From contig CAYIGA010000002.1 of the NCBI GenBank assembly GCA_964362925.1, positions 4,951 through 28,950 on the forward strand: a stretch of 24,000 nucleotides of DNA, written 5' to 3'. The stretch is from an uncultured Candidatus Saccharibacteria bacterium. Lineage in GTDB: Bacteria > Patescibacteriota > UBA1384 > 2-12-FULL-50-11. The notes beneath the pieces are model-generated. The model had not been told where the DNA came from and did not search any database. It saw nothing but the letters and a program-made list of their open reading frames with translations. Of this stretch, positions 20-23,293 are shown in pieces (the stretch's first letter is position 1; each line of letters opens with the position of its first letter). Position numbers and translations under genes: made by a program.

Positions 20-949
20 ATGAAAATTCTAAATTCTAAATTCAAAATTCTAAATTCTCGATCGGGGTTCACACTAATCGAGTTATTGGTCGTTATCACC
101 ATCATCGGGATTTTGGTGACGTTAGTAACGGTGGCCGTTGTCCCGATCCAGCGTAAAAGCCGCGACGCGAAGCGCAAGGCCGAAATCAACAGTTTATTGT
201 CAGGAATTAATTTGTTTAAGGCCGATTTTAAGATTTATCCCAATTCGACATTTTATTTAGGAAGCTACGGCGGTTCGGCCTTCGATACCGACAATCCGCG
301 GAACCCCAACTCCAACTACGCCGTCGCGACCGATATTGCTAACAACTGCAACAACGCTACTGTTGGCGCGACCAGTACATTTTTGAACCTGAACGGCCAA
401 ACGATCGACGCTCCCGGTAAACCAACAATCATCGAGATGGATACAAAGCCCTTACTGATGAGTCCCGGTTTCGTTTCGGTCAACAATTTCCTCATCTGCT
501 TGCGTTATATGGATCGCTTGCTGGCCGATCCCAAACCACTGACATCGGCTGACGCTGATAAGTATCAGTACAGGGTTTCGTACGACTACGGCGATGTGAT
601 CGTGACCTCACGGCTCGAGAACGATACCACCGATACCGACGCCAGCTATATGTTCAACGACACTCTGGCCGCCGCCGGCGGAGCACCGAAGCGCTACTAT
701 CGCGGCAGCGGCGTGGTCGTACGGCATCTGGACGACAGTAGTGATGTAGCCGGTTTCTTCTCTAACCTAAGTGGTACAAATGTTGATGGCAAATATCTCT
801 ACCAGTGCAAGACTGATAGTCTCAACGTCGCCATCGCCCGGGACAATCGCGTCATCAATGAACCGATTGTCAGCGATCAAGGGGTTTACGCCGCCAACCC
901 AACTTGTCAAAATCAACCGGGAGGACTTGATGTTATTCCAGCGTACTAA
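20..949 (+). CDS. Type IV pilin-like protein with prepilin-type N-terminal cleavage/methylation motif (309 aa; candidate major subunit)
   Basis: ATG at 20 is preceded by GAGGGG (12-17). N-terminus MKILNSKFKILNSRSG|FTLIELLVVITIIGILVTLV has a basic leader, G-1, F+1, E+5 and a ~20-residue hydrophobic helix. It is followed by RKSRDAKRKAEINSL...YPNS, typical of the pilin helix/head junction. Several Cys residues lie in the C-terminal half. Confidence 0.85.
   Translation: MKILNSKFKILNSRSGFTLIELLVVITIIGILVTLVTVAVVPIQRKSRDAKRKAEINSLLSGINLFKADFKIYPNSTFYLGSYGGSAFDTDNPRNPNSNYAVATDIANNCNNATVGATSTFLNLNGQTIDAPGKPTIIEMDTKPLLMSPGFVSVNNFLICLRYMDRLLADPKPLTSADADKYQYRVSYDYGDVIVTSRLENDTTDTDASYMFNDTLAAAGGAPKRYYRGSGVVVRHLDDSSDVAGFFSNLSGTNVDGKYLYQCKTDSLNVAIARDNRVINEPIVSDQGVYAANPTCQNQPGGLDVIPAY
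24..58 (+). repeat. Heptanucleotide tandem repeat (AAATTCT)x5, third unit AAATTCA, inside codons 2-13 of the pilin gene
   Basis: Direct reading gives aaattct aaattct aaattca aaattct aaattct at 24-58. The unit length of 7 is not a multiple of 3. Confidence 0.9.
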
Positions 950-2752: not shown

Positions 2753-3999
2753 CGGTGAAGTCAAATCACCACCTCCACCTGGCAGGTGGAGGTGGTTCAG
2801 CGCCAAGGGGCTTTACCTTGATTGAGCTCGTCATCAGCGTCGCCCTGTTTATTATCGCCATCAGTATCGCTCTATTTACTGTCGTCGGCACCAACGGGCT
2901 AATTCAAAAAGCCGATGCCCGAAGCGCTATTAGTGAAAGCACTCGCGGTGTTGGCGAGGCCGTTCGACGGGCAGTCGATAACGCTTCGGTTGGCGCTGTC
3001 AATATTCTCTCCGACCAGGGCAGTACCGTCGCCGTTCAGATCAAAGCATTTTCCGATTTGCAATCGGGTAACACCTGTACCGTCATCGGCCGATCGACCG
3101 CCAGTACCGATCCGGGCGGGGAGGAGAAATATACTCTCGCCAAGGGCGGAACGGTGATCGCGCTCCTCGTTTATAACATCGATTCGGCTGGGCTCTGCCC
3201 CAGTCTAAGCACCGATCCGATTTACCAAAATCGCTTAACGAACGCTCAAGCCGTTGTTAAAGATATCCAGTTCTCTCTCCAAAATATCGTTTGTACCCCG
3301 ATTACGGCCAGTTGTGTCGTCAAGCAGTTACTCCGTTATTCCCTGACGCTAGAGCTGCTCCAAAAGGGCAGTGGCGGGATCAGCGAAGCTCGTTCTCCAA
3401 CGCTAACTATTCAAGAAGGGCTGCCAATTGGCTTGGTTAACGAGGCGACGATCGTTTTGAAAATCGAGACGTCGACACTTTTCGGTGGAACAAAAGATCA
3501 GGCTTACAACGACATCGTCACTGCTAGCGGCGGCATCCCCAACTATACCTGGTCAATTAGGGGCGGATCCTTGCCAGGTGGTTTGTCGCTCAACGGTTCA
3601 ACCGGCGCCATCACCGGCACGCCGACTGGATCTGGCCTAAGTAATTTCACTATTAAAGTGACCGATAGCGTCGGTGTCAGCGCCGAAAAGCCGCTGTCAA
3701 TTATAATTGTCGCTGGCCAGAAGCTGTCAATTACAACCAGTTCTTTACCCTCCGCCTCGGTCGGCTTCTCTTACTCAACTACTCTAGCGGCTAACGGTGG
3801 CACAACACCTTATACTTGGTCGTTGGCCGTTGGTTCTTTGCCGTCTGGTCTGTCACTTAACCCCACCACTGGTCTAATCAGCGGTACCCCACTCTCAGCA
3901 GGAACTCACGACTTTACTGTCCGAGTGACTGACGCGGCGGCGCCTAACGACGCCGCTACTAAACCGCTTACGATCAGAGTTGATTTTGGGCCACTATGA
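2749..3999 (+). CDS. Pilin-like protein with two C-terminal Ig-like (He_PIG-type) repeats (416 aa)
   Basis: ATG 2749 overlaps the upstream stop as ATGA. The motif SAPRG|FTLIELVISVALFIIAISIAL is present. The C-terminus carries two ~80-aa repeats: GGIPNYTWSIRGGSLPGGLSLNGSTGAITGTPTGSGLSNFTIKVTD and GGTTPYTWSLAVGSLPSGLSLNPTTGLISGTPLSAGTHDFTVRVTD. This is the Y-x-W...LP-x-GL-x-L....G-x-I-x-GTP pattern of putative Ig domains. Confidence 0.8.
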   Translation: MTVKSNHHLHLAGGGGSAPRGFTLIELVISVALFIIAISIALFTVVGTNGLIQKADARSAISESTRGVGEAVRRAVDNASVGAVNILSDQGSTVAVQIKAFSDLQSGNTCTVIGRSTASTDPGGEEKYTLAKGGTVIALLVYNIDSAGLCPSLSTDPIYQNRLTNAQAVVKDIQFSLQNIVCTPITASCVVKQLLRYSLTLELLQKGSGGISEARSPTLTIQEGLPIGLVNEATIVLKIETSTLFGGTKDQAYNDIVTASGGIPNYTWSIRGGSLPGGLSLNGSTGAITGTPTGSGLSNFTIKVTDSVGVSAEKPLSIIIVAGQKLSITTSSLPSASVGFSYSTTLAANGGTTPYTWSLAVGSLPSGLSLNPTTGLISGTPLSAGTHDFTVRVTDAAAPNDAATKPLTIRVDFGPL

Positions 4000-6900
4000 A
4001 AAACGAACTGGCTCAAAAATCGGCTTCGGCGTTGCTACTGACAGTGATGATAATCGCCATTCTGACGACAACGACCTTGGCTTCGATCGCCGTCCGCTTC
4101 GACCAATTAGCATCAACTGACAAAATTGCCAACTCGGCCGTGGCTAAATCGGCCGCTGATTCGGCTCTCGTCAAAGTCAAAGAAAAACTGGCCGCCCAAA
4201 CACCGATAACGCCGAAGGTCTTTAACCTTGACGACAACACCGAATCCGATCTCTCGCCAACCACTCCGTTTCGGCCTAACCCGCGCAAAATTGTCTCCAC
4301 CTACGCCAAGGTTCCTTCTTCGCTACCGCGCTGCAGTGGCGTCATCGTCTTGGTGCCGTGGACCAACGACGGTAAATATCTATTGAGCCAGAGTAACGAA
4401 TCCAACCCGGCCTTGATCTTTCACTTGGCTAATATCGTCAACGACACGCCGCTTGGGATTATCCCCGGTAACGGCGATCTAGGCGGTAACGGCGACGATA
4501 ATCCCGAAAAACAAAAAACCATCTCCCAGCTGACCAATATGGGCCATTTCTATAACCCCTTCGCGCCGGTTGGCGCCAAGCAGAAAGACTTGAACTACTG
4601 GATCGTTAAACTCGGCGGGCCCCAGGATCAGTTTTTAACCCGAAAGGCCGCCGATGGCGCTAGTTCTTTTTACAAAAATGTCGACTTTGTCTACTTGCCG
4701 TACTTGCCCCGCTGGCAGGATTCGGGGCTGTTCACCACCGCCTCGGGCTCGAAAGTTGATCGAATCTCGGCGACTGATTTACGGCTGAAATTTGAGTCGA
4801 TTATTAAAGACAATAATTTTAAAGTTTGGATCGACGCCTCGATAACTGATTCTGATCTTTATCGATACGGCTTTGGCGATCTCTTTGTCGACTCGACTGA
4901 TTATCGCCTGAAGTGGCTTCAGCCCTCGCTCTGGAACGACACGCCAGAGGCCGATAATTTCTCGACACCGTACATCACCGAAAATGCCGAACCCTCCCAG
5001 ACCTTGAAGTGGAGTAAGCAAGACCAGCCCCTAATGACTGATAAGGAAGGCGGTTGGAAGGTGGCGATAGTCAAGGGCGCCCAATCGTTTTCATTTGTCA
5101 AGCTGGCCGATAACAACCAAACGTTTACTGCCGGCGCCACCATCACTGGTTTAGTCTACGGCTCGTTGGAGGGATTACGCTTAAATCAGTCGATCACCTT
5201 GTTACTGCTCAATAAGGATCAGCAACCGCTGAATCTCCAATCGCGCCAACGAGACCCAGGGCGATTATACCGAGTTGAACTGACTAAAATTGGCTCGGAA
5301 ACCATCTCGAACAACGTCAAGTCGATCAGCCTTGATTTCCAGTTGAGTAGCGTTGCCTACGATACGCCGCCAAAAGCCGACGGTATGGCCGTTACCGGGT
5401 CGGATCTTGACGTCATTGCCGTCTTGGCCCCGCCCCAGTTCTCGACGACCAAGTCGATCGATTCAGTCAAAATTGAATCGCCTGGTGGCAACGGGACGGA
5501 AATTACTTTCTCCCCTGGCTCTAAATGCCTAACCCCCTGTCCAGCCGTCGGCGATTTGGTTAACCTTACTAAAGCCACTAAAACGCCCGTTTGGGGCAAA
5601 GTGACCGATGTTGATTACTCTGATGGGACCGAGCTGGTCAGTTTTAGCGTTGACAAACTCCGCCTAAGCCCGCTACCAACCCGAGAGATGGCTTATACCT
5701 CTTTTGATGATGATGGCAAGACGAAAATCGCTTACTACGGCGGTAGCATCACCACCAACGACTACGACGGCGGTTACGCCACCGAATCGGATCAGCTCTG
5801 GATTTACGACCCGGAGGAGGCCGATCCTTCAAAGTCTTGGGAATTCAAGGCCTCGGACGATCCTGCTGGTCCCGGTCGTCGAGCCGGCGCCTCAATGGTT
5901 TACGATTCGGAAAATAATCGTTTAGTCATGATCGGCGGCTACTATCACCAGTCGATCGACGCTTCCGGTCAGGGGGACTGTGAGGAATTTCAAGCCCTTT
6001 GTCTCAATACCAATTGGCCCGGTCTACGAATTGCCAAGCGAGTGACAAACGACGTTTACGTCTTTGACTTAAAGAACGCCAAATGGAAGAAAATTGATTA
6101 CACCTTTGATGCTGACAAAAAAATTCAACAGGACGGATCCTATCTGGTCCGACTAACTTCAAGTCTGGCCGACCGCTCGGGTCTGGAACGGTGGGAGATG
6201 ATTGCTAAAAATCCGATCAATGTCCCTCAAACCTTATATGTTGACGGTAATCCTTCGACAATTACTCTTTCTCCTAGCGCCGCCGGCTTGGCAAAAGGCG
6301 ATGAAATTTATCTTTACGGTAGCAAATTGGACAACAGCAAATTTTACGCTTGGGGCAAGATTGACGAGCTTAATTACCCAGCCGATAGCGTTACCGTTTC
6401 GACCTACGGCTATAAAGGTGATCAAGTCCAAGTGTCAGTCAAGATGAATTCTCTGGCCATTCAAGTTGTCAAGCGACAAATTACCACTACTACCTGTACT
6501 GGTGTGGTCTCCGCTGTGGTCTCCGGCTCGCTTTACTCCTGCCTACTAGCCGACACGACCGGATACGCCGTTGGCGATTCGGTCGTTTTGGAGCAATACG
6601 ATCTTAATAATAACTTAAGCAACACCCTGTCCGGTTTTATTAGCTTCATTAACCCCGCCAATAGTCAGGCTTACTTCATCGCTGACGAGCGAGTTACGCC
6701 CGCTGGTTTTAAAGATTATTCCGTTCAAAGTGCGGGAATAGTCGATAACGACTCGGTCATCGCTTTCCCTTCGGCTCGCTACGGCGCTACCTTTGCCCTT
6801 CAGCCAACAACGCCAACGGAAGCCGTTTATTGGCAGGGGACGGCCAGAAACATTAACTCCAATCACCGCTTTACTGATTTGTGGAAGGTTGAGTTTGTCA

Positions 6901-9065
6901 AAGGACAAGACGAGAAAAGCGCCGTTTGGTCGTTCCAACCAACCGACAATAGTATCGATCCCGACTTAAATGATAAATACAATTTTCAGGTTATTCAGCC
7001 CAGCTACTCTTATCAGATTCGCACGACCAAATCAGCTGGCAATAAGAAGGTTGTAAAAGATAAGTCCGACCTTGATCATCGAACTCAAAAGAACACGACA
7101 ATTTGGGACGACGAGAAGCGTTGGCTATTGGAGATCGACCCGAATGACGCTGGCAAAGTTGTCGTTGGCGCCTGGGCAACCTTGGAGCGGCGCTTGGACG
7201 CTGACGGTACTCGAGAAACTTTCCACGGCATCGTCGAGGATATCTACTCCGCTAATAACCGCTGCGGTGTCTTCGTCTATGCTGAAAATATACTCTGTCT
7301 TCGCCATAATCCAACCTATCCCGGAGATTCCGGCCTAGCCGATGATTCCAAGAACGTTAAAGTGACGATGACGCCGTCGTTTCGGACTGATATTGCTAGC
7401 GGCGGCGTCTTTAAGGGCGCGACTGATTCTGTCACGCTCAAGAACGTGCCGAGCGCCAAGCTTGGCAGCGTTCCCGGTGTTGGGGCGATGGTGATGATCT
7501 GGAAAGACGACGGCAACTGGCCAACAAACGCCTACACCTTTATTGTTAGCGGACGAGCCTACACTCCCAACAATAAGACTTTCAAGTTTTTATTTGACAA
7601 GCTGACCGCTTCACCTCATCCGATCGGTTACAGCACCAGCCAGATTGCTCGGGCTGGTAGTACTGATCGCTTAGTGACAATTACCGATCACCAGATGAAT
7701 TATTACGATGATACTAACGGCCCGGAATGGATCAAAAACACCTCTTCTGGGGCTTGGAAAATCCGCTTGGCGACAAAAAATCCCGGTCTCCTCTATCGAC
7801 CGGCGCCCCGTCGAGGTGGAATGATGGCCAGTATTTATATTGACGAGGCCGGATCTAAAACCAGTAAGCTATTTGTGGTCGGCGGGACGTTTGGTCAATA
7901 CGGCTCGTTATGGAAAGAAGAAAATGCCGGTCTCGATAAAGGCGCGACGCTCAAATGGCTGCCCCAATACGTCTCGCCTGACTCAACTGAAGATATCCCT
8001 AATCTATTCGGCGGCTCTTTAGTTGTTTATAAATCAGGCCGTAATATTAAGGCGGTTTATTTCGGCGGTAAACAAAAAACCGATCTTTCGAGCGCTGATT
8101 ACGGTCGCTCAATCGGCGCCAAGATGCTCGGCCGACCAGACAACGGGACAATGATTGACGGTAGTTATTATATTATTGACTCCGATGTCGCCGATCCAAC
8201 TGCTCGGGCCCTAACCAACACCATTGAGCAGAACGACGCCAACTGGCCAACTGGTGTTGATAAATCACTAAAATTTAAGGGCGGTGATCGGAGCACTAAG
8301 TCGGTCTGCGCTTATCTTGGTCAGGTCAATTCCTCCTCCTGCTCGTCAAAATCTCTCCTGTCGCAGTTGGGCGACCTCGGTCGCCTTGATGATTCGGCTC
8401 CGAATGACCCGTACAACGGCTGGACCTGGGGCAAATCGGCTATTTTGTCGGAGCTGGGCGATGCCTTCAAAAAACAAAATGTCGGTGGCACAGTTAAAGC
8501 CAGCTTAATAATGTCCACCCCGACCCTATCCGGTAGCGGCGTTAACGGCCGCTGGGAGCAGGACGGCTACCGCCCGTACTGCAAGGATACTGGCGCTGGA
8601 CCCTGTGGCAACTGGGTCTCTCAAGTCTACGGTCGGCTTGGAACTGACTTTGCTTCCAATAAAACCGCCGCCCTGGTCGCCTATAGCTCGATTAATAACG
8701 CCGAGCATAAAGGTGGGGCTATTTTGGCAACGACCGTTGGCGTCGGCCTGGCCATTGCCAACAATCGGGGCGGTACAACTGGAACCAATGGCGGATGGTA
8801 CAGCTACTGCGCCGCTAGCGAGATTGAAAAAGACAACGGCGAGCCGGTTCTGAAAAATAAACTCTATCAATGCCAATCGACCGCCAGTCGCTATATGTCG
8901 ACCGTGCCAGATGCCGAAGACTTGTTATTTATGCTTAACGCCACTCAAGCCCTCTCGGCCGTTAACACCTACAAAGTCGTTGGCTATTACGGCGGAGTCA
9001 AGCGGGGCTATCTGGTTACCTCAACCTCCGGCACCTTGCCGAAAATCTACGAAATCGTGCCCTAA
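3996..9065 (+). CDS. Giant pilus-associated protein (1689 aa) with PilX-like N-terminal hydrophobic anchor and Kelch-like beta-propeller blades; candidate tip adhesin
   Basis: ATG 3996 overlaps the upstream stop (ATGA) and opens an uninterrupted 5070-nt ORF. N-terminus MKNELAQKSASALLLTVMIIAILTTTTLASIAV resembles the PilX N-terminal segment and lacks E5. Kelch-like signatures occur at aa ~565-705 (IAYYGGS, LWIYDPE, RAGASMVYDSENNRLVMIGGYY, DVYVFDLKNAKWKKI). More occur at aa ~1270-1360 (RRGGMMASIYID..KLFVVGGTFG, GGSLVVYKSGRNIKAVYFGGK). Confidence 0.75.
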   Translation: MKNELAQKSASALLLTVMIIAILTTTTLASIAVRFDQLASTDKIANSAVAKSAADSALVKVKEKLAAQTPITPKVFNLDDNTESDLSPTTPFRPNPRKIVSTYAKVPSSLPRCSGVIVLVPWTNDGKYLLSQSNESNPALIFHLANIVNDTPLGIIPGNGDLGGNGDDNPEKQKTISQLTNMGHFYNPFAPVGAKQKDLNYWIVKLGGPQDQFLTRKAADGASSFYKNVDFVYLPYLPRWQDSGLFTTASGSKVDRISATDLRLKFESIIKDNNFKVWIDASITDSDLYRYGFGDLFVDSTDYRLKWLQPSLWNDTPEADNFSTPYITENAEPSQTLKWSKQDQPLMTDKEGGWKVAIVKGAQSFSFVKLADNNQTFTAGATITGLVYGSLEGLRLNQSITLLLLNKDQQPLNLQSRQRDPGRLYRVELTKIGSETISNNVKSISLDFQLSSVAYDTPPKADGMAVTGSDLDVIAVLAPPQFSTTKSIDSVKIESPGGNGTEITFSPGSKCLTPCPAVGDLVNLTKATKTPVWGKVTDVDYSDGTELVSFSVDKLRLSPLPTREMAYTSFDDDGKTKIAYYGGSITTNDYDGGYATESDQLWIYDPEEADPSKSWEFKASDDPAGPGRRAGASMVYDSENNRLVMIGGYYHQSIDASGQGDCEEFQALCLNTNWPGLRIAKRVTNDVYVFDLKNAKWKKIDYTFDADKKIQQDGSYLVRLTSSLADRSGLERWEMIAKNPINVPQTLYVDGNPSTITLSPSAAGLAKGDEIYLYGSKLDNSKFYAWGKIDELNYPADSVTVSTYGYKGDQVQVSVKMNSLAIQVVKRQITTTTCTGVVSAVVSGSLYSCLLADTTGYAVGDSVVLEQYDLNNNLSNTLSGFISFINPANSQAYFIADERVTPAGFKDYSVQSAGIVDNDSVIAFPSARYGATFALQPTTPTEAVYWQGTARNINSNHRFTDLWKVEFVKGQDEKSAVWSFQPTDNSIDPDLNDKYNFQVIQPSYSYQIRTTKSAGNKKVVKDKSDLDHRTQKNTTIWDDEKRWLLEIDPNDAGKVVVGAWATLERRLDADGTRETFHGIVEDIYSANNRCGVFVYAENILCLRHNPTYPGDSGLADDSKNVKVTMTPSFRTDIASGGVFKGATDSVTLKNVPSAKLGSVPGVGAMVMIWKDDGNWPTNAYTFIVSGRAYTPNNKTFKFLFDKLTASPHPIGYSTSQIARAGSTDRLVTITDHQMNYYDDTNGPEWIKNTSSGAWKIRLATKNPGLLYRPAPRRGGMMASIYIDEAGSKTSKLFVVGGTFGQYGSLWKEENAGLDKGATLKWLPQYVSPDSTEDIPNLFGGSLVVYKSGRNIKAVYFGGKQKTDLSSADYGRSIGAKMLGRPDNGTMIDGSYYIIDSDVADPTARALTNTIEQNDANWPTGVDKSLKFKGGDRSTKSVCAYLGQVNSSSCSSKSLLSQLGDLGRLDDSAPNDPYNGWTWGKSAILSELGDAFKKQNVGGTVKASLIMSTPTLSGSGVNGRWEQDGYRPYCKDTGAGPCGNWVSQVYGRLGTDFASNKTAALVAYSSINNAEHKGGAILATTVGVGLAIANNRGGTTGTNGGWYSYCAASEIEKDNGEPVLKNKLYQCQSTASRYMSTVPDAEDLLFMLNATQALSAVNTYKVVGYYGGVKRGYLVTSTSGTLPKIYEIVP

Positions 9066-9084
9066 AAAATCAACCCTTAAAGTT

Positions 9085-9160
9085 CAAATCTCAAAGTGAC
9101 AATTCAAAATTAATAATAACCATCGCCAAGCGATACCGATATTTTGAGATTTGCATTTTG
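9085..9160. repeat. Left arm of the 76-bp inverted repeat flanking efp; contains its own 11-bp terminal inverted repeat
   Basis: The reverse complement of 9085-9160 matches 9736-9811 at 75 of 76 positions. The single difference is A versus G in ...cttggcgAtgg... Internally, CAAATCTCAAA (9085-9095) is the reverse complement of TTTGAGATTTG (9143-9153). The 14-mer ATTTTGAGATTTG(C) repeats in tandem at 9141-9153 and 9155-9167. Confidence 0.95.
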
Positions 9161-9179
9161 AGATTTGAGATCTTGGGCT

Positions 9180-9731
9180 CTACGCTCGGCTGTCGTACTG
9201 TCCTGTCTCGGTATTGACAATTATCTTGTCACCGGTTTTTATAAATAACGGCACTTGAACCGTGGCGCCGGTTTCTAAGCTGGCCGTCTTGAGGGCGGCG
9301 TTGACGGTATTGCCAGCAGTTGCCGGCTCGGCAAAAGTTATTTCAAACTCAACTTTTTTTGGTGATTTGACATCAATCACTTCGTCTCGCCAAAAAAGCA
9401 GGTCTACGGAGCCGCCTTCTTTTAGATACTTAAATCGTTCCAGAGAAAGTTTAACTGACGTCTGCTCGAAAGTGTCGGCAATCATCACTTGGGCGTTAGT
9501 GCCTTGGCGGTAAAGAAAAGTGGCGGCCTTGTATTGCAGGGACGCTTCTTCGATTCGGTCGTTGCCCTGAAAAGTTTGGCTAAAAATGGCTTGAGTTACG
9601 AGATTGCGCAACTTGGTATCGAGTTTGGCCTGACCGCGACCGGCCCGAACATGGTCGGCCGAAATAACCTCGTGCGGGGCGTCACGAAACATTATTTTCG
9701 AGCCGATTTTCACCTGAGCGAGGGAGTACAT
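9180..9731 (-). CDS. efp: Elongation factor P
   Basis: MYSLAQVKIGSKIMFRDAPHEVISADHVRAGRGQAKLDTKLRNL... has EF-P layout, with the loop xGxGQA followed by KLRNL, and a length of 183 aa. ATG 9731 is preferred over the TTG at 9752, which lies inside the repeat arm. Confidence 0.9.
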   Translation of the reverse strand: MYSLAQVKIGSKIMFRDAPHEVISADHVRAGRGQAKLDTKLRNLVTQAIFSQTFQGNDRIEEASLQYKAATFLYRQGTNAQVMIADTFEQTSVKLSLERFKYLKEGGSVDLLFWRDEVIDVKSPKKVEFEITFAEPATAGNTVNAALKTASLETGATVQVPLFIKTGDKIIVNTETGQYDSRA

Positions 9732-9735
9732 AATC

Positions 9736-9811
9736 CAAAATGCAAATCTCAAAATATCGGTATCGCTTGGCGGTGGTTATTATTAATTTTGAATTGTCAC
9801 TTTGAGATTTG
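9736..9811. repeat. Right arm of the 76-bp inverted repeat flanking efp
   Basis: See the left arm. This arm begins 5 nt upstream of the efp ATG in the efp sense and ends 25 nt downstream of the rpsR stop. Confidence 0.95.
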
Positions 9812-9835
9812 GATTTTTGTTGCTGGCAGATTGGT

Positions 9836-10045
9836 CTATTTCTTGGCGGTTGAGAGTAGGCCTAAATAGCGGGCTCGTTTAATGGCGATCGCCAAGACGC
9901 GCTGATACTTGGTTGAAGTATTGGTTTCGCGGGCCGATTTTATTTTGCCCCAACTGGTGATGTAACGATTAAGCATCGACGTATCACGATAGTCTATCTC
10001 CTTGACCCGGTTTTTCTTAAAGTAACAATCGACTCGACGCTTCAT
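9836..10045 (-). CDS. rpsR: 30S ribosomal protein S18 (bS18)
   Basis: [50 protein letters not shown] matches the conserved S18 core (IDYKD...GKI...KYQR.LA.AIKRAR.L.LL). Classic rpsF-ssb-rpsR context. Confidence 0.92.
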
Positions 10046-10092
10046 CTTAGGGAAGAATATAGAATTTAGAATTGTCGCTTCGCTCGCTTCTC

Positions 10093-10108
10093 CCCGCCAG
10101 CTGGCGGG
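10093..10108. other. Perfect 16-bp GC-rich palindrome/hairpin CCCGCCAGCTGGCGGG in the ssb-rpsR spacer
   Basis: Read directly from the sequence. It has a 6-bp GC stem and lacks a flanking T-run, so it is not a canonical intrinsic terminator. Confidence 0.6.
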
Positions 10109-10132
10109 TCGGAGTAGGAATTAAGAAGGGCT

Positions 10133-10147
10133 TGTCACAAAGTGACA
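10133..10147. promoter_or_regulatory. Palindrome TGTCAC-AAA-GTGACA; candidate operator sharing an 11-mer with the efp repeat arms
   Basis: Perfect 6-bp half sites with a 3-bp spacer. CAAAGTGACAA (10138-10148) also occurs at 9092-9102 and, reverse-complemented, at 9794-9804. The regulatory role is inferred only. Confidence 0.3.
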
Positions 10148-10197
10148 AAATGGAGTTTGGGTTCTTTATTCTTAATAATACATTCATCATTCTGTCT

Positions 10198-10647: not shown

Positions 10648-11182
10648 TGACCTCTCCTTTTTGACGCTCGGCCGGACGGCTCCTCGACAAGTTTAGAGTC
10701 ACCCCAAGCCCAGTCGAGGGGCGGCGTTTTGGCTCCTCTAGTCCAGCTCGCCAGGTGGAGAGAAGGTGTCGCTCGATTGTTTCGGTGTGTTTTAATTCGC
10801 TCTCCAGTTTTTTGATCGATAAGGCGTCGGCATGAAAAAAGACTGACACCAGCGACAGCTCCCGATGTTGATTAATTGGAAATGCCAGTCGCTTGACGCC
10901 TAAATCCTCGGCCTTTTCTACTTTTGAACCAACGGCCAAGACCAAGGCGGACAGTTCAGCCAGGGCACTGTCGGCGTCTTTAGCTAGGGCCGAGAGCAAG
11001 TAGATTTGGGCTTTAGAGTCTCCGGCCGTAGTTTCGGCGACCACATCAGCGGCCGTAGATTGTTCTTCAACTTCTTTGATATTGTCCAGTGTTGACTCTT
11101 CAACCCCGGCCGTGGTTTCGACACTTCCTATCTCTTTAACTACCATTGTCAAAATTTTATCAGGAAAGGGTCGATTAATCAA
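10640..11182 (-). CDS. rpsF: 30S ribosomal protein S6-like (bS6) with N-terminal acidic extension and C-terminal basic tail
   Basis: The core is YLLSALAKDADSALAELSALVLAVGSKVEKAEDLGVKRLAFPINQHRELSLVSVFFHADALSIKKLESELKHTETIERHLL. This fits the S6 pattern G.R.LAYPI...G.Y..F......I..LE..L.....V.R.L, and the gene sits directly upstream of ssb. Start is ambiguous: TTG 11182 with GAGGGGGG upstream, or ATG 11146 without an SD. Confidence 0.7.
   Translation of the reverse strand: MINRPFPDKILTMVVKEIGSVETTAGVEESTLDNIKEVEEQSTAADVVAETTAGDSKAQIYLLSALAKDADSALAELSALVLAVGSKVEKAEDLGVKRLAFPINQHRELSLVSVFFHADALSIKKLESELKHTETIERHLLSTWRAGLEEPKRRPSTGLGVTLNLSRSRPAERQKGEVNV
10701..10723. repeat. Copy A of dispersed motif ACCCCRARCCCAGTCGWRGGGC
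   Basis: caccccaagcccagtcgaggggc lies inside the rpsF 3' tail. It matches copy B (19834-19856) at 20 of 22 positions. Confidence 0.7.
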
Positions 11183-12152
11183 CCCCCCTCTTGTCTGGTG
11201 GTTGACCCCGAACGGAGTTCACCCCGATTCCAGATGAAGGGTCGAGAGACGGTTGACTATGAAAACGGCGATGGACGTCTCGGAGCGACCGATCGGTAAC
11301 GTGAGTGTAAATTTGGGTGGTCGTGATTGAGGAGTGGCCGAGCATTGCTTGGACAGAGCGCAAATCAGCCCCGTTTCGCAATAAATCAGTGGCGAAGCTG
11401 TGGCGGATTTGATGGGGGGTGACATTTTGAGTGACGCCAGCTCTTATTGCCGCCTGGCCAATTAGCCGCTGAACTGTCCGATCACTAAGATGGTTCTTTT
11501 TTGAGTCAAGGAGGCTGTTTTGATGATGCCGGATGAAAAGATATGGGCTTGTATCGGCTCGAGTGTCAATATAGCCGCCAAGCTCATCGAGGGCTTCTTC
11601 GGACAGAAATCCCGGCCGGACTTTTCCGCCTTTGCCCCGGACACTGAATTCCCCCGTTGCTAGGTTGACTTGATTGCGCTTTAAGTTCGTTAGCTCGCTG
11701 ACGCGGAGGCCGCTCGAAAAGAGGACGGCGATTATCGCCCGGTTCCGTCGGCCGATTCTCGAGTCGTCGCCGGCAACTTCGATTAATAGCAAAACCTCCG
11801 CCCGGTCCAAAAAATTGATCTGCCGAGAAGGGACTTTACCTAAAGTGATTTTTTCTGGCGGTAAGACTCTTAGATCGCGGCCAATCAAGTACTTAAGTAA
11901 GGCTCTGACGGCAATCAAATAGTAGTTGACGGTGGCTCGATTCCGTTTTACTCCCGCCGAATCCAGAAGGGCTAATTGGTAGTCGACCGCATCTTCGCCG
12001 CTAAGTTGATCTATTTTTGTTACTTTATTGGCTTCGGCCCAACTCTGAAAACTGGCGAGATAGTGTCGATAATTTTTAACGGTTGAGGCCGAGGCGCCGC
12101 GGGAGGTCTCCAGATATCGGAGGTAATCCTTAACGGCTCGACTAATGGTCAT
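11175..12152 (-). CDS. Tyrosine site-specific recombinase, XerC/XerD-like
   Basis: The N-terminal SAM-like domain reads YLRYLETSRGASASTVKNYRHYL. Catalytic signatures are GLRVSEL, HQIRHSFATDLLRNGADLRSVQAMLGHSSITTTQIYTHV (H-x-x-R ... Y). The stop overlaps the putative rpsF start by 8 nt. Confidence 0.85.
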   Translation of the reverse strand: MTISRAVKDYLRYLETSRGASASTVKNYRHYLASFQSWAEANKVTKIDQLSGEDAVDYQLALLDSAGVKRNRATVNYYLIAVRALLKYLIGRDLRVLPPEKITLGKVPSRQINFLDRAEVLLLIEVAGDDSRIGRRNRAIIAVLFSSGLRVSELTNLKRNQVNLATGEFSVRGKGGKVRPGFLSEEALDELGGYIDTRADTSPYLFIRHHQNSLLDSKKNHLSDRTVQRLIGQAAIRAGVTQNVTPHQIRHSFATDLLRNGADLRSVQAMLGHSSITTTQIYTHVTDRSLRDVHRRFHSQPSLDPSSGIGVNSVRGQPPDKRGVD

Positions 12153-13436: not shown

Positions 13437-14909
13437 TTAGATTTCCAGATCTTGGACTGTCGGTAAAGGCGAAGGCAATTGGCTACTAGTTGCCGGTGTC
13501 TGGCTTTGAACCGGAGCGCTGTTATTGACTTGGGGCGGCTGATTAGTCGGATCGTCACCAGGTTCGAGAATCGTTGTTGGTGGCTGATCAAACGAAATGG
13601 TCTCGGCCGGTTTGGGCGTAACAACGGTCCCAGACGGCAAATTTTGGCTAAACGGCGCCGGGACAGTGGAAATTGGCGGTGGAGGCAAGGAAGCGACCGG
13701 CATCTGGACACTAGCTTCTGGCTTTAGAGCGGGAGGAGTTAGCGGAGATTGATTTTGGCTCGTCGTTAGACTACTCGCTTCGACTGACTGTTTACTGACG
13801 TTGGCCGGAACCTCTTGGAAATTGCTTGGTATTCTTGGGAGTGACGACAGTGGCGGCGGCGGTGGCGGTGGGACTAGCTTTGGCAGAGGGAGGATCGGCT
13901 CTGAAGGTAACGATGGGTTTACTCCAGGCGAAGTCGAGGGGGCCTGATTTACGCCCAACTGACTCGAGGGGCTAAGTGATGCCCCTGACCGGTAGCTACC
14001 GGCTGATGGTTTGGAGATCAGTTCGGTCGGCAGTTGATTTTGGCTAGTGGCGGGACTGCTCGGAACAAGTGGCTCGGCCACTTGAGGTGGCCTCGGCGGG
14101 ACAATCGCCGGAGACTCATATCCCTTCTCGGCCACTTGAGGTGGCCTCGGCGGGACAATCGCCGGAGACTCATATCCCTTCTCGGCCACTTGAGGTGGCC
14201 TCGGCGGGATGATCGGCCAAGGGTTTATTGAGGGTTTGTTGGGGGTCGACGGCGATGAAGTTAACTGGTTGGATTGCCCGTTTGGCGACTGTGAGGTCTT
14301 TGGCTGGTTGCCGCTGGCGGTTGCCCCTAGAACATCGGCCGAAACCGAAGGAAGTTGATTTTGGCTCGTTACTGGACTGCTTTGAGTTTGTTCTTTTGGT
14401 TGTTCTCCCGTCCAGGTTGGATTGATGGTTGGCTTGACATTGTAGCTGCTGGGGGGCGAAGAGGCAGTTGGCGCGGGGCTATCGGCTTTCGGTCCACGGG
14501 CGTCCTCTAGAATCGGAGAAGTTGGAGATTGCCGGCTACCGGAGAACTCGGTTGAAGGTGGCGCTATTTTTGGAACTTCAAAATTGGGCTTTGGGGACAG
14601 AGTAGGCGCCTGGGAACTAGGAGCTGGGGACTGGTTGTGGGGGGTCAATCTTATGTCCTTTCTCTCTAGTTCCGAGTTCCGAGTCCCTGGTCCCTCCTTA
14701 CCTACCAATATCTCTTCTAAATATTTTATACCAATCAAAGCGATGGCCGGTTTTCCGCCCTTGGTCAAAACATAAAGGCCATCGGCTGTATTTTCAACAT
14801 CGGCAACCAGACGACTAAAGTTGTCGCGAGCGTCAGTCAATGGAACGATACGATCGATCGGTACGCTAATCAAATTTCCCTCCTCCAATTCAGAGTAACC
14901 GAGCCCCAT
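13437..14909 (-). CDS. Phd/YefM-like N-terminal domain fused to a ~400-aa Pro/Ser/Gln/Thr-rich low-complexity region
   Basis: The N-terminus VPIDRIVPLTDARDNFSRLVADVENTADGLYVLTKGGKPAIALIGIKYLEEIL fits the antitoxin Phd_YefM pattern (seaRnnls.l...V......v.it..gkp.avl.s...ye.l). The remainder is low complexity, with a PPPPPPP run, 3x ESPAIVPPRPPQVAEKGY and 3x TSQNQ(L/S)P. Confidence 0.65.
   Translation of the reverse strand: MGLGYSELEEGNLISVPIDRIVPLTDARDNFSRLVADVENTADGLYVLTKGGKPAIALIGIKYLEEILVGKEGPGTRNSELERKDIRLTPHNQSPAPSSQAPTLSPKPNFEVPKIAPPSTEFSGSRQSPTSPILEDARGPKADSPAPTASSPPSSYNVKPTINPTWTGEQPKEQTQSSPVTSQNQLPSVSADVLGATASGNQPKTSQSPNGQSNQLTSSPSTPNKPSINPWPIIPPRPPQVAEKGYESPAIVPPRPPQVAEKGYESPAIVPPRPPQVAEPLVPSSPATSQNQLPTELISKPSAGSYRSGASLSPSSQLGVNQAPSTSPGVNPSLPSEPILPLPKLVPPPPPPPLSSLPRIPSNFQEVPANVSKQSVEASSLTTSQNQSPLTPPALKPEASVQMPVASLPPPPISTVPAPFSQNLPSGTVVTPKPAETISFDQPPTTILEPGDDPTNQPPQVNNSAPVQSQTPATSSQLPSPLPTVQDLEI
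14073..14209. repeat. 54-bp tandem repeat, ~2.5 copies, in frame (18-aa unit)
   Basis: ctcggccacttgaggtggcctcggcgggacaatcgccggagactcatatcccttc starts at 14073, 14127 and 14181. The first two copies are identical as read. Confidence 0.9.
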
Positions 14910-14971
14910 TTTGGTGTCAAATCATCCGTCCCAACTGTCCAGCCACTCTTCCGTCCCCGCTCTTGCCAAGG

Positions 14972-14977
14972 TATAAT
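14972..14977 (+). promoter_or_regulatory. Consensus -10 box TATAAT 7 nt upstream of the M16 peptidase ATG (leaderless candidate)
   Basis: Reads gTATAATtaaaccgATG with no SD and no convincing -35. Confidence 0.35.
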
Positions 14978-14984
14978 TAAACCG

Positions 14985-16304
14985 ATGTCTCCACTCTCAC
15001 CTAAGTTCGAAACCTTGCCCAACGGCCTCCAACTAGTCCTCATCGATCTGCCCGGCTGGCATTCTATCACCAATTTTTTAGTTATTCGGAGCGGTAGTCG
15101 TTACGAAAATAAAGCCAATAACGGAATCGCTCATTTTCTCGAGCACATGGTTTTTAAGGGCACCAAAAAATACCCCAACACCCTGGCGGTTGCCGAAGCG
15201 ATCGAAGGCGTCGGCGGTTATTTTAACGCCTGGACGGCTAATGACCATACCGCCTACTGGAACTCGGTGCCGATATCGGCCTGGCGCATAGGGACGGAAA
15301 TGCCGTTCGAACTGGCGTTTGAGGCTCTGTTGCGTCCGGAAGATTTAGAGCGGGAGCGCGCGGTTATAATAGAAGAGATCAAACGGATGCGCGACGATCC
15401 GTCGAGCTTTGTTGACGACCTGCTCGGTCAAGTTCTTTTTCCCAATCACCCGCTGGGGCAGTCGGTGATCGGCAGCGAAAAAAATATCCAAAGCATGTCC
15501 ATTGAACAGTTTAACGACTATCGACTGACTTATTATCACCCGTCCCAGGCCTTATTTGTAGCGGTTGGCAATATAACTGGTCAAGATATTCGTTCGGCGG
15601 TTATCGCCCAGACCAAAGATTTAAAAGCTTCATCGGTGACCAGACCGAAGCGTTTCGAGTCGTCAAGTATTAGCGGCCTGAATTTTTACCATAAAAAAAC
15701 CGATCAAACCCACTTTATGTTGGGAATGGCTAATCCAACTTTGGTCGCTGGCGGTCCTCAAAATCCAATCGGAGTGGTACTTAACGCCGTCTTAGGCACT
15801 GGTATGAGCTCTCGATTATTTCTCAATATCCGCGAAAAGAAAGGCCTAGCTTATGCGATTTCGTCTAGTTTTCACTCCTTCGAGGATACCGGTCTTATTC
15901 AAATCTACGGCGGCGTTAATACCGAAAAAGTTGACCAAACTCTGGCCGCCCTCGACGAAGAACTGTCTCGTCTGGCGACCGATATAGTCAGTGACGAGGA
16001 GTTTGCCAAAACCAAAGCCCTAATTGTTGGCTCACTCGATATGAGCGCCGATCGGCCGATTGACTTAGCTCGTTGGTACGGGGTGGCTCGATTATTGGGC
16101 GATGAGGAATCGATCGAACAGGCCAAAAAAAAGATTCTAGCCGTCACGGCCGAGTCAATCCGTGACTTAGCCAAGATTGTTTTTGCTAAGAAGCGACAAA
16201 CGCTGGCGGTCATCGGCCCGTATGAAAACGACCGAATGTTTCGCGAGTTCTTGGGTCTATCAAGTGTAGCCCCACAAGGGGCAAGGATTAAGTCCGAAGT
16301 CTAA
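14985..16304 (+). CDS. M16-family zinc metallopeptidase (insulinase/pitrilysin-like)
   Basis: The inverted zinc-binding motif HxxEH is present in GIAHFLEHMVFKGTKKYP, with a downstream ERERAVIIEEI glutamate region. The 439-aa two-domain length is typical. Confidence 0.85.
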   Translation: MSPLSPKFETLPNGLQLVLIDLPGWHSITNFLVIRSGSRYENKANNGIAHFLEHMVFKGTKKYPNTLAVAEAIEGVGGYFNAWTANDHTAYWNSVPISAWRIGTEMPFELAFEALLRPEDLERERAVIIEEIKRMRDDPSSFVDDLLGQVLFPNHPLGQSVIGSEKNIQSMSIEQFNDYRLTYYHPSQALFVAVGNITGQDIRSAVIAQTKDLKASSVTRPKRFESSSISGLNFYHKKTDQTHFMLGMANPTLVAGGPQNPIGVVLNAVLGTGMSSRLFLNIREKKGLAYAISSSFHSFEDTGLIQIYGGVNTEKVDQTLAALDEELSRLATDIVSDEEFAKTKALIVGSLDMSADRPIDLARWYGVARLLGDEESIEQAKKKILAVTAESIRDLAKIVFAKKRQTLAVIGPYENDRMFREFLGLSSVAPQGARIKSEV

Positions 16305-23145: not shown

Positions 23146-23264
23146 CGCTCTACCGTTGTAACAACAAGGGGCTTTTTTGTCCAAAGAAAGTTTGCTTGCC
23201 GTCGGCGACGGCAAAAGATAGCTTTTCCTATTCCTGGTTAAACACGATTCAGCAAGCTTAGGCG

Positions 23265-23293
23265 TTGACTAAAGAGGTAATAATTGTTATACT
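23265..23293 (+). promoter_or_regulatory. Sigma70-type promoter TTGACT-17-TATACT upstream of rpmA
   Basis: -35 at 23265-23270 and -10 at 23288-23293, with an exact 17-nt spacer. The -10 ends 11 nt before ATG 23305, implying a very short or absent leader. Confidence 0.5.

Follow-up and report, generated by a model that had tools for sequence, protein, structure and literature searches.

In rrn operons, RNase III processing stems bracket the 16S and 23S rRNA. The hok mRNA carries a fold-back inhibition (fbi) element, in which the 3′ end pairs with the 5′ end, so that the message is inert until processed. At the DNA level, inverted repeats flank invertons, i.e., phase-variable invertible segments such as fimS, hin, and the shufflons. 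In the icaR mRNA of Staphylococcus aureus, pairing of the 5′ untranslated region (UTR) with the 3′ UTR blocks initiation and recruits RNase III (PMC3868564). Small dispersed palindromic repeats include Correia elements (CREE), ERIC, REP/BIME, RUP, and miniature inverted-repeat transposable elements (MITEs) (PMC2649163, PMC3184786). Here, we analyze an inverted repeat that encloses efp, the gene of elongation factor P (EF-P), in a 24-kb stretch of DNA (24,000 nucleotides [nt]; hereafter, the window). The source lineage is Candidatus Berkelbacteria (candidate phyla radiation [CPR]/Patescibacteria) from the Hainich aquifer, well H51. The interpretation that we favor, as a possible one and with clear reservations, is an RNA-level 5′–3′ clamp or RNase III stem around efp, as modeled by folding of the transcript.

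Inverted repeat around efp and the predicted fold of its transcript

The repeat search yields two arms at positions 9079–9160 and 9736–9817, each of 82 nt, 96% complementary and 575 nt apart; across the window and the replicate assemblies, the 82-nt repeat is 96–98% complementary. The 76-bp inverted repeat described in the first-pass annotation is contained in these arms: the sequence 9085–9160 is found again, apart from one mismatch, on the minus strand at 9736–9811, and 100 shuffles give no match at all. A 1-nt gap (A9161) carries the homology on to positions 9165 and 9732, to about 87 nt in total, as read from the bases and aligned by BLAST. Hence, the right arm does adjoin the efp start, as had been noted, not at a distance of 5 nt but with the gapped homology reaching the base before the ATG (9731–9729, minus strand). 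The rest of the described geometry agrees with our results: the arms enclose efp alone, and the left one is found between two stops, those of the 1689-aa pilin-like open reading frame (ORF) and of efp; the right one separates the efp start from the rpsR stop at 9836 (all features are listed in Table 1). No other long repeat of this kind occurs in the window.

Each arm is also an imperfect palindrome, missed in the first pass, with AAATCTCAAA...TTTGAGATTT placed around an ATCGC-CAA-GCGAT hairpin. The layout of the left arm is an A-rich heptad arm, this small hairpin, and a T-rich heptad arm. The internal inverted repeats are 9084–9112/9140–9168 in the left arm and 9737–9753/9801–9817 in the right one. 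The single mismatch in the core is a strain single-nucleotide polymorphism (SNP): position 9773 is G in the window and A in three replicate ENA assemblies from the same well, whose 76-nt cores are perfectly complementary.

Two of the replicate assemblies (loci from other assemblies carry L numbers below), L001 (12.8 kb) and L002 (2.6 kb), span both arms and the junctions with 99.9% identity and in the same orientation. The third replicate, L136, is a 667-nt contig covering window positions 9124–9790 and broken inside both arms, as expected of an 82-nt repeat in a short-k (k = 55) graph at about 6x coverage. An assembly error creating the inverted duplication, of which the first-pass annotation had warned, has in its favor nothing beyond the general risk with repeats. 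As the replicate-filter assemblies L001 and L002 independently reproduce both arms and both junctions, this source of the duplication is excluded, with a negligible residual probability.

When a transcript spanning both arms is folded, as had been suggested for the rpsR–efp transcript, the minimum free energy (MFE) structure uses the long stem (z = −15.4). The inter-arm duplex has an energy of −127.4 kcal/mol, vs. −15.4 and −31.8 for the two local hairpins; the left arm folded alone has −32.9 kcal/mol on the plus strand (z = −5.8) and −31.8 kcal/mol on the minus strand (z = −4.3). The pairing between the initiation region and the post-stop sequence reaches the base before the AUG. The within-species 5′/3′ duplex energy is −71.8 for the window and −33.3 for L145, a locus of a second Berkelbacteria species; cross-species controls give about −19, and other relatives are no better. 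Complementarity of the 5′ and 3′ flanks as a clade-wide trait was considered and rejected, as only the window and L145 stand out. Rfam gives no family match, the only hit being a chance one to mir-3145 (E = 0.41, 21.7 bits vs. the gathering score of 98). Hence, of the RNA-level proposal in the first-pass annotation, the stem is reproduced in the predicted fold, with a shorter version in the second species, and of the proposals made there, this one, with a possible role as a processing stem or translational lock, holds up best.

It had also been suggested that the arm carries the efp promoter. On the efp strand of the right arm, a consensus scan reveals no sigma-70-like promoter, and the suggestion is without support; a canonical site, TTGACT-17-TATACT, is seen upstream of rpmA. 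In L003 and L005, rpsR and efp are separated by 2–4 nt, which points to ancestral co-transcription of the two genes. Given this spacing and the lack of a right-arm promoter, the upstream unit most likely reads through into efp, with both arms on one RNA.

The proposed mechanism would proceed as follows. Devoid of a recognizable promoter of its own, efp would be read from the xer–rpsF–ssb–rpsR unit, which places both arms on one mRNA. After transcription of the 3′ arm, the arms would pair into an 82–87-bp duplex that loops out the efp ORF and buries the efp initiation region, which is U-rich and has no Shine–Dalgarno sequence. Two outcomes are conceivable, and they may act both together: the duplex might serve as a cis 5′–3′ UTR lock limiting re-initiation; and RNase III might cut the long double-stranded RNA, so that efp is excised from the ribosomal-protein transcript and its stability and translation are uncoupled from it.

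Several observations weigh against a clamp or processing stem. Both the co-transcription of the arms and any cleavage are steps that we infer. The SNP at position 9773 produces a C·A mismatch in the sense RNA and a G·U pair in the antisense RNA. The arms contain weak terminator-like hairpins, each with only a 5–6-bp stem with three G–C pairs followed by GGTTATTATTAATTTTG, that could halt transcription before efp or 40–55 nt into the 3′ arm; if they end the transcript early, the duplex would be shortened or abolished. No 5′/3′ complementarity around efp is seen in L003, L005, L009, L013, L137, L141, and L148, hence any clamp function would be lineage-restricted. The near-perfect identity of the arms is equally expected from a recent neutral duplication, and the arms may simply belong to a generic, ordinary class of palindromic AT-rich spacers.

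The hairpins and the SNP also bear on a different arrangement, a symmetric sense/antisense unit, where each arm would act as promoter for one direction and as terminator for the other, and the left copy would drive an RNA running antisense through efp and ending in the right arm. Indeed, the terminator-like hairpin with its T-run reads outward-to-inward on opposite strands of the two arms, the SNP at 9773 preserves pairing on the plus strand only, and the exact motif GYGACAATTCWAAATT lies 17 nt upstream of the ATG of rpsR as well as in both arms. However, the arms contain no sigma-70-like −35/−10 pair, and GYGACAATTCWAAATT is not conserved upstream of genes in the relatives; as its spacing is also unlike that of −35/−10 boxes, it was rejected as a promoter or operator. 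Further, no ORF runs antisense, and L145 does not share the 20-codon ORF of the arm (MQISKYRYRLAMVIINFELSL), whose ATG is lost there; for that reason, this ORF was also rejected as coding. An antisense unit of this kind seems very unlikely.

Conservation of the element and origin of the right arm

The central 20-mer of the element, CCAAGCGATACCGATATTTT, is found in JGI metagenomes in four contigs, of which L145 and L147 are syntenic Berkelbacteria loci; it occurs once per metagenome, at the efp locus only. In L145/L147, the element stands directly behind the efp stop and matches the left-arm core 9079–9153 at 71 of 75 bases. The EF-P of L145/L147 is 77.6% identical to that of the window and 88.5% identical to P0002, whose locus, L009, is without the element, and L145 DNA is no closer to the window than that of other relatives. 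Between the efp genes of the window and L145, four-fold sites are 56.5% identical and codon positions 1–2 are 84.7% identical, giving for the element a binomial P of about 1e-13. The coding sequence adjoining the element (100 nt on each side) has an ordinary identity of about 70%; transfer of a recombination tract from the L145 lineage was thus rejected, as the adjacent coding identity is not raised. The 95% conservation of a 75-nt noncoding core beside genes with saturated silent sites is in itself a concrete and testable anomaly. The element abuts the pilin gene in the window, whereas about 500 nt with a small ORF intervene in L145, hence the element travels with efp.

Immediately adjoining the efp ATG, the L145/L147 loci also have 29 nt with 86% complementarity to the element, including a 22-nt core with a single mismatch; both the MFE and the centroid folds of the L145 transcript use this long-range 5′/3′ pairing. 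The four substitutions by which the elements of the window and L145 differ were also examined for covariation, but the heptad register differs between the folds and no conclusion is drawn.

These four differences from the L145 element are common to both arms of the window, while the outer AAAGTT, which is L145-like, is kept in the left arm only. This identifies the left arm as the resident element and the right arm as the copy; as the right arm has all four substitutions of the left arm relative to L145, the copying occurred after the split of the window and L145 lineages. The sequence comparison thus gives good support to the left arm as a putative locus-resident AT-rich palindrome behind the efp stop, and to the right arm as a lineage-specific inverted copy. 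The older 5′/3′ complementarity of 22–29 nt would then have been lengthened to 82–87 nt by the right-arm copy. Most likely, gene conversion or template switching, seeded by this older complementarity, wrote the copy into the rpsR–efp spacer, where it would have replaced the earlier sequence up to the start codon.

Such a copy could also be neutral, i.e., the palindrome of the efp 3′ flank may have been copied in inverted orientation upstream of the gene by template switching or gene conversion, recently and harmlessly, with the RNA duplex unselected. The arms are 99–100% identical, consistent with youth, and close-clade relatives lack the copy; L003, L005, L009, L013, L137, and L141 have no inverted repeat around efp. 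The rpsR–efp spacer turns over fast: it is 104 nt long in the window vs. 2 (L003), 4 (L005), 72 (L013), 136 (L137), and 175 nt (L141), and these sequences are unrelated. Other, unrelated AT-rich hairpins occupy operon spacers of the relatives, namely, the ssb–rpsR spacer of L005 and L137 and three spacers of the Berkelbacteria locus L152, where three AT-rich heptad-based hairpin elements lie within 3 kb (445–552, 1881–2000, and 2601–2710). On the other hand, an 82-bp duplex at the start codon of a housekeeping gene should be costly if formed; in the second species, a 29-nt version was independently retained or gained at precisely these two positions; and the element is far more conserved than neutral sites. 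We consider a purely neutral origin rather unlikely when taken by itself, but the neutral copying of an AT-rich palindromic spacer of generic type comes close to the RNA clamp in plausibility. The stronger form of the clamp interpretation is likewise doubtful: here, the element with its complement before the start codon would be a selected, previously undescribed cis-regulatory RNA module, either a 5′–3′ clamp gating EF-P synthesis or a device excising efp, about 95% identical in two Berkelbacteria species and expanded in the window to an 82–87-bp stem.

Two chance insertions of a small mobile or dispersed palindromic repeat (MITE-, REP-, or CREE-like), flanking efp in opposite orientations, would also produce two similar arms. 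Both arms are imperfect palindromes that bear inverted repeats at their ends, and the distribution of the element is patchy, as it is present in the window and L145 and absent from L009 and L148, both closer to L145. Moreover, the two species differ more in their genes, with about 75% identity, than in the element, with 95%. Two direct-orientation copies of a related AT-rich, heptad-based hairpin element of about 130 nt flank efp in L140, another Berkelbacteria locus (56–190 and 743–891; about 65–79% identity). A further gene between two direct copies of a similar element is found in a Magasanikiibacteria locus (L024, Candidatus Magasanikiibacteriota): a 321-aa ORF lies between two A-rich/T-rich hairpins of about 100 nt in the style of the arms, 86% identical over 80 nt (4684–4795 and 5701–5800).

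To this may be added that hairpins of the type AAATCTCAAA...TTTGAGATTT are over-represented in CPR. The pattern AAATCTCAAA-N40-65-TTTGAGATTT has at least 120 matches in genome contigs; those listed, which do not extend to the source genome, are mostly of low complexity, and at least 28 of the 120 listed carry Patescibacteria-type names. The CPR look-alike hairpins among the matches listed (29) are all intergenic, with 14 in tandem, 8 in divergent, and 3 in convergent settings and 4 at contig edges; given these settings, the look-alikes show no 3′-end-only pattern. The claim of the first-pass annotation that such repeats are unusual in a streamlined genome is tempered accordingly, since CPR genomes commonly have AT-rich palindromic spacers of such a style.

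Against mobility, few copies are seen in the sequence examined: there are two in the 24 kb of the window, with no third copy, and within 14 kb, L145 has a full copy and a partial one and no other; the central 20-mer is restricted to the efp locus, as stated above. Inspection reveals no target-site duplication at 9060–9180 or 9725–9840, there is no transposase nearby, and plasmid, phage, and viral collections give no match (BLAST and two scans of viral contigs). The similarity to other CPR hairpins is of low complexity, at 65–75%, and aligns in both orientations, hence homology of the arms to them is not established. A multicopy MITE is disfavored, and the insertion of two dispersed repeats is, overall, improbable. 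Apart from the arms, AAATTCT heptad repeats at the start of the window (20–63) resemble the arm motifs; they lie within the coding sequence of a pilin-like leader peptide (MKILNSKFKILNS...), and the resemblance is probably compositional.

Gene neighborhood and orientation of efp

The gene order on the minus strand, as assigned by Pfam, is Xer-type recombinase, rpsF, ssb, rpsR, efp. The order PAP2/xer–rpsF–ssb–rpsR–efp/giant pilin-like gene is kept in every relative recovered, and an Xer-type recombinase is found at the same position in all relatives examined, with or without a repeat. The first-pass annotation had proposed that recombination between the arms inverts efp, bringing it behind the pilin operon, and had pointed to the tyrosine recombinase gene 1.4 kb away. 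The gene is indeed there, at a distance of 1.36 kb, but as it is syntenic in relatives that lack the repeat, it is a housekeeping Xer-type neighbor and not a repeat-associated invertase.

An Xer-type or RecA-dependent inversion might still be considered, given that an 82-bp near-perfect inverted repeat suffices for homologous inversion and that one replicate assembly is broken inside both arms; the latter is the usual behavior of a k = 55 graph at an 82-nt repeat and 6x coverage. However, all contigs that span efp (window, L001, and L002; L145 and L147 in the other species), coming from two species and five or more samples, have a single orientation, although at 3–6x coverage a minority form could escape. 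Inversion would keep the same 82–87 nt on either side of efp and change only the distal operon context; identical sequence being left on both sides, no on/off effect is obvious. A dif-like Xer site (ATAA-N6-TTAT core) is not seen in the arms by eye, without a formal test. The invertible-segment proposal finds no support and appears highly improbable.

Table 1. Arms of the inverted repeat, hairpins within them, and adjacent genes of the window
Feature	Coordinates	Strand	Source and remarks
Left arm, AT-rich palindromic element directly behind the efp stop	9079–9165	plus	Inverted-repeat search
Right arm, putative derived inverted copy filling the rpsR–efp spacer, up to the base before the ATG	9732–9817	minus	Repeat search, BLAST
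Small terminator-like hairpin followed by GGTTATTATTAATTTTG	9121–9135	minus (efp direction)	Consensus scan, weak match
Mirror terminator-like hairpin	9761–9775	plus	Consensus scan, weak match
efp (elongation factor P, 183 aa)	9180–9731	minus	Pfam EFP_N, EFP, Elong-fact-P_C; sole gene between the arms
rpsR (S18), cistron upstream of efp	9836–10045	minus	Pfam
Xer-type tyrosine recombinase	11175–12152	minus	Pfam Phage_integrase and SAM-like domain; neighbor conserved regardless of repeat
Pilin-operon protein, 1689 aa	3996–9065	plus	ORF, weak Kelch matches; converges on efp and borders the left spacer

The best homologue of the window EF-P among 5.8 billion proteins is 81% identical, and its homologues belong to Candidatus Berkelbacteria/Patescibacteria. 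The loop tip of EF-P domain I (residues about 28–36) reads AGRGQA, with Arg at the position of the modified Lys34 of E. coli. Genes upstream of the 1689-aa ORF, on the plus strand, have the N_methyl pilin motif (N-terminal methylation). The cumulative GC skew over the window has its minimum at about 9000–9500, at the convergent efp/pilin junction; the pilin-like genes, with their C-rich coding strand, are its probable cause, and not a replication landmark.

The efp-to-pilin spacer is a hot spot of small insertions in the relatives. L137 has a PIN/MazE toxin–antitoxin pair there (2158–2884), and L145 (about 3930–4320), L009, and L141 have an ORF of 74–76 aa that has a G+C-rich terminator of its own. 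In L141 (1–103, the gene exceeding the locus), the Xer-type recombinase that precedes rpsF has 735 aa with Intein_splicing and LAGLIDADG domains, and is an intein-containing Xer.

In the ssb–rpsR spacer (10046–10197), GCGACAATTCTAAATT (10063–10078, minus) stands 17 nt before the rpsR ATG, and its 16-mer core is present in both arms. The same spacer contains a perfect palindrome, TTGTCAC-TTT-GTGACAA, at 10132–10148 and a G+C hairpin, CCCGCCAGCTGGCGGG, at 10093–10108; GTGACAA occurs 8 times in the window vs. 2.2 expected. Leaders of window genes appear to be very short and lack a Shine–Dalgarno sequence: the promoter of rpmA mentioned above is followed by an 11-nt leader (within 23215–23290), TATATT stands 10 nt before the ATG of rpsR (within 10046–10060), and TATAAT stands 7 nt before the ATG of the M16 peptidase gene (within 14950–14987), which looks leaderless. 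The ORF 13437–14909 (minus strand, 490 aa, PhdYeFM-like N-terminus) contains a perfect 54-nt tandem repeat in 2.5 copies (14073–14234); an apparent difference in its copy number between the window and L001 is explained by a 100-N scaffold gap in L001.

The efp locus among known systems

Within the library searched, no paper describes repeats around efp or terminators in Patescibacteria. If functional, the structure would be an unusually long cis 5′–3′ clamp around a housekeeping translation factor, in CPR/Patescibacteria, a group in which gene regulation is almost unknown and cannot as yet be studied in culture, and it would show how short UTR complementarity may grow by inverted gene conversion. 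If not functional, it would be a clean case of how, in streamlined genomes, AT-rich palindromic spacers are duplicated and rapidly turned over. The locus also serves as a caution that an inverted repeat beside a recombinase gene is no evidence of a switch.

Similar to the small dispersed repeats, the arms are imperfect palindromes in transcribed spacers (such repeats being about 80–150 nt long, foldable as hairpins, and cut by RNase III), and the element has a patchy distribution and is more similar between genomes than its surroundings. Unlike them, it shows no multicopy spread in the sequence examined and no target-site duplications, and in the two species, it keeps to a single locus, the 3′ flank of efp. 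With invertons, the locus has in common inverted repeats flanking a short segment and a tyrosine recombinase nearby; however, typical recombinase sites are much shorter than the arms, the recombinase is not specific to the repeat, and the segment contains a whole housekeeping gene whose flanks flipping would leave unchanged, observed in only one orientation.

The pairing of the 3′ end of an mRNA with its 5′ end is a likeness to the fbi element of hok; the latter belongs to a toxin mRNA, uses a short pairing and exonucleolytic activation, and has no homology to the efp locus. The closest precedents, together with icaR, are the processing stems of rrn operons, where long-range pairing of the flanks likewise loops out a whole gene and presents a long duplex. 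The predicted stem at efp differs from them in enclosing a protein-coding cistron, in being lineage-specific, and in abutting the start codon.

The comparison with icaR concerns the pairing itself. The duplex at efp is of 82–87 bp and essentially perfect, in contrast to the short UCCCCUG-type motif of icaR; it involves no Shine–Dalgarno sequence, the gene is inside a ribosomal-protein operon, and the pairing at efp is a predicted one. What the two messages have in common is a cis sequence behind the stop codon that is complementary to the initiation region of the same mRNA, and at efp, as in icaR, such pairing would be expected to block initiation and to make a substrate for RNase III.

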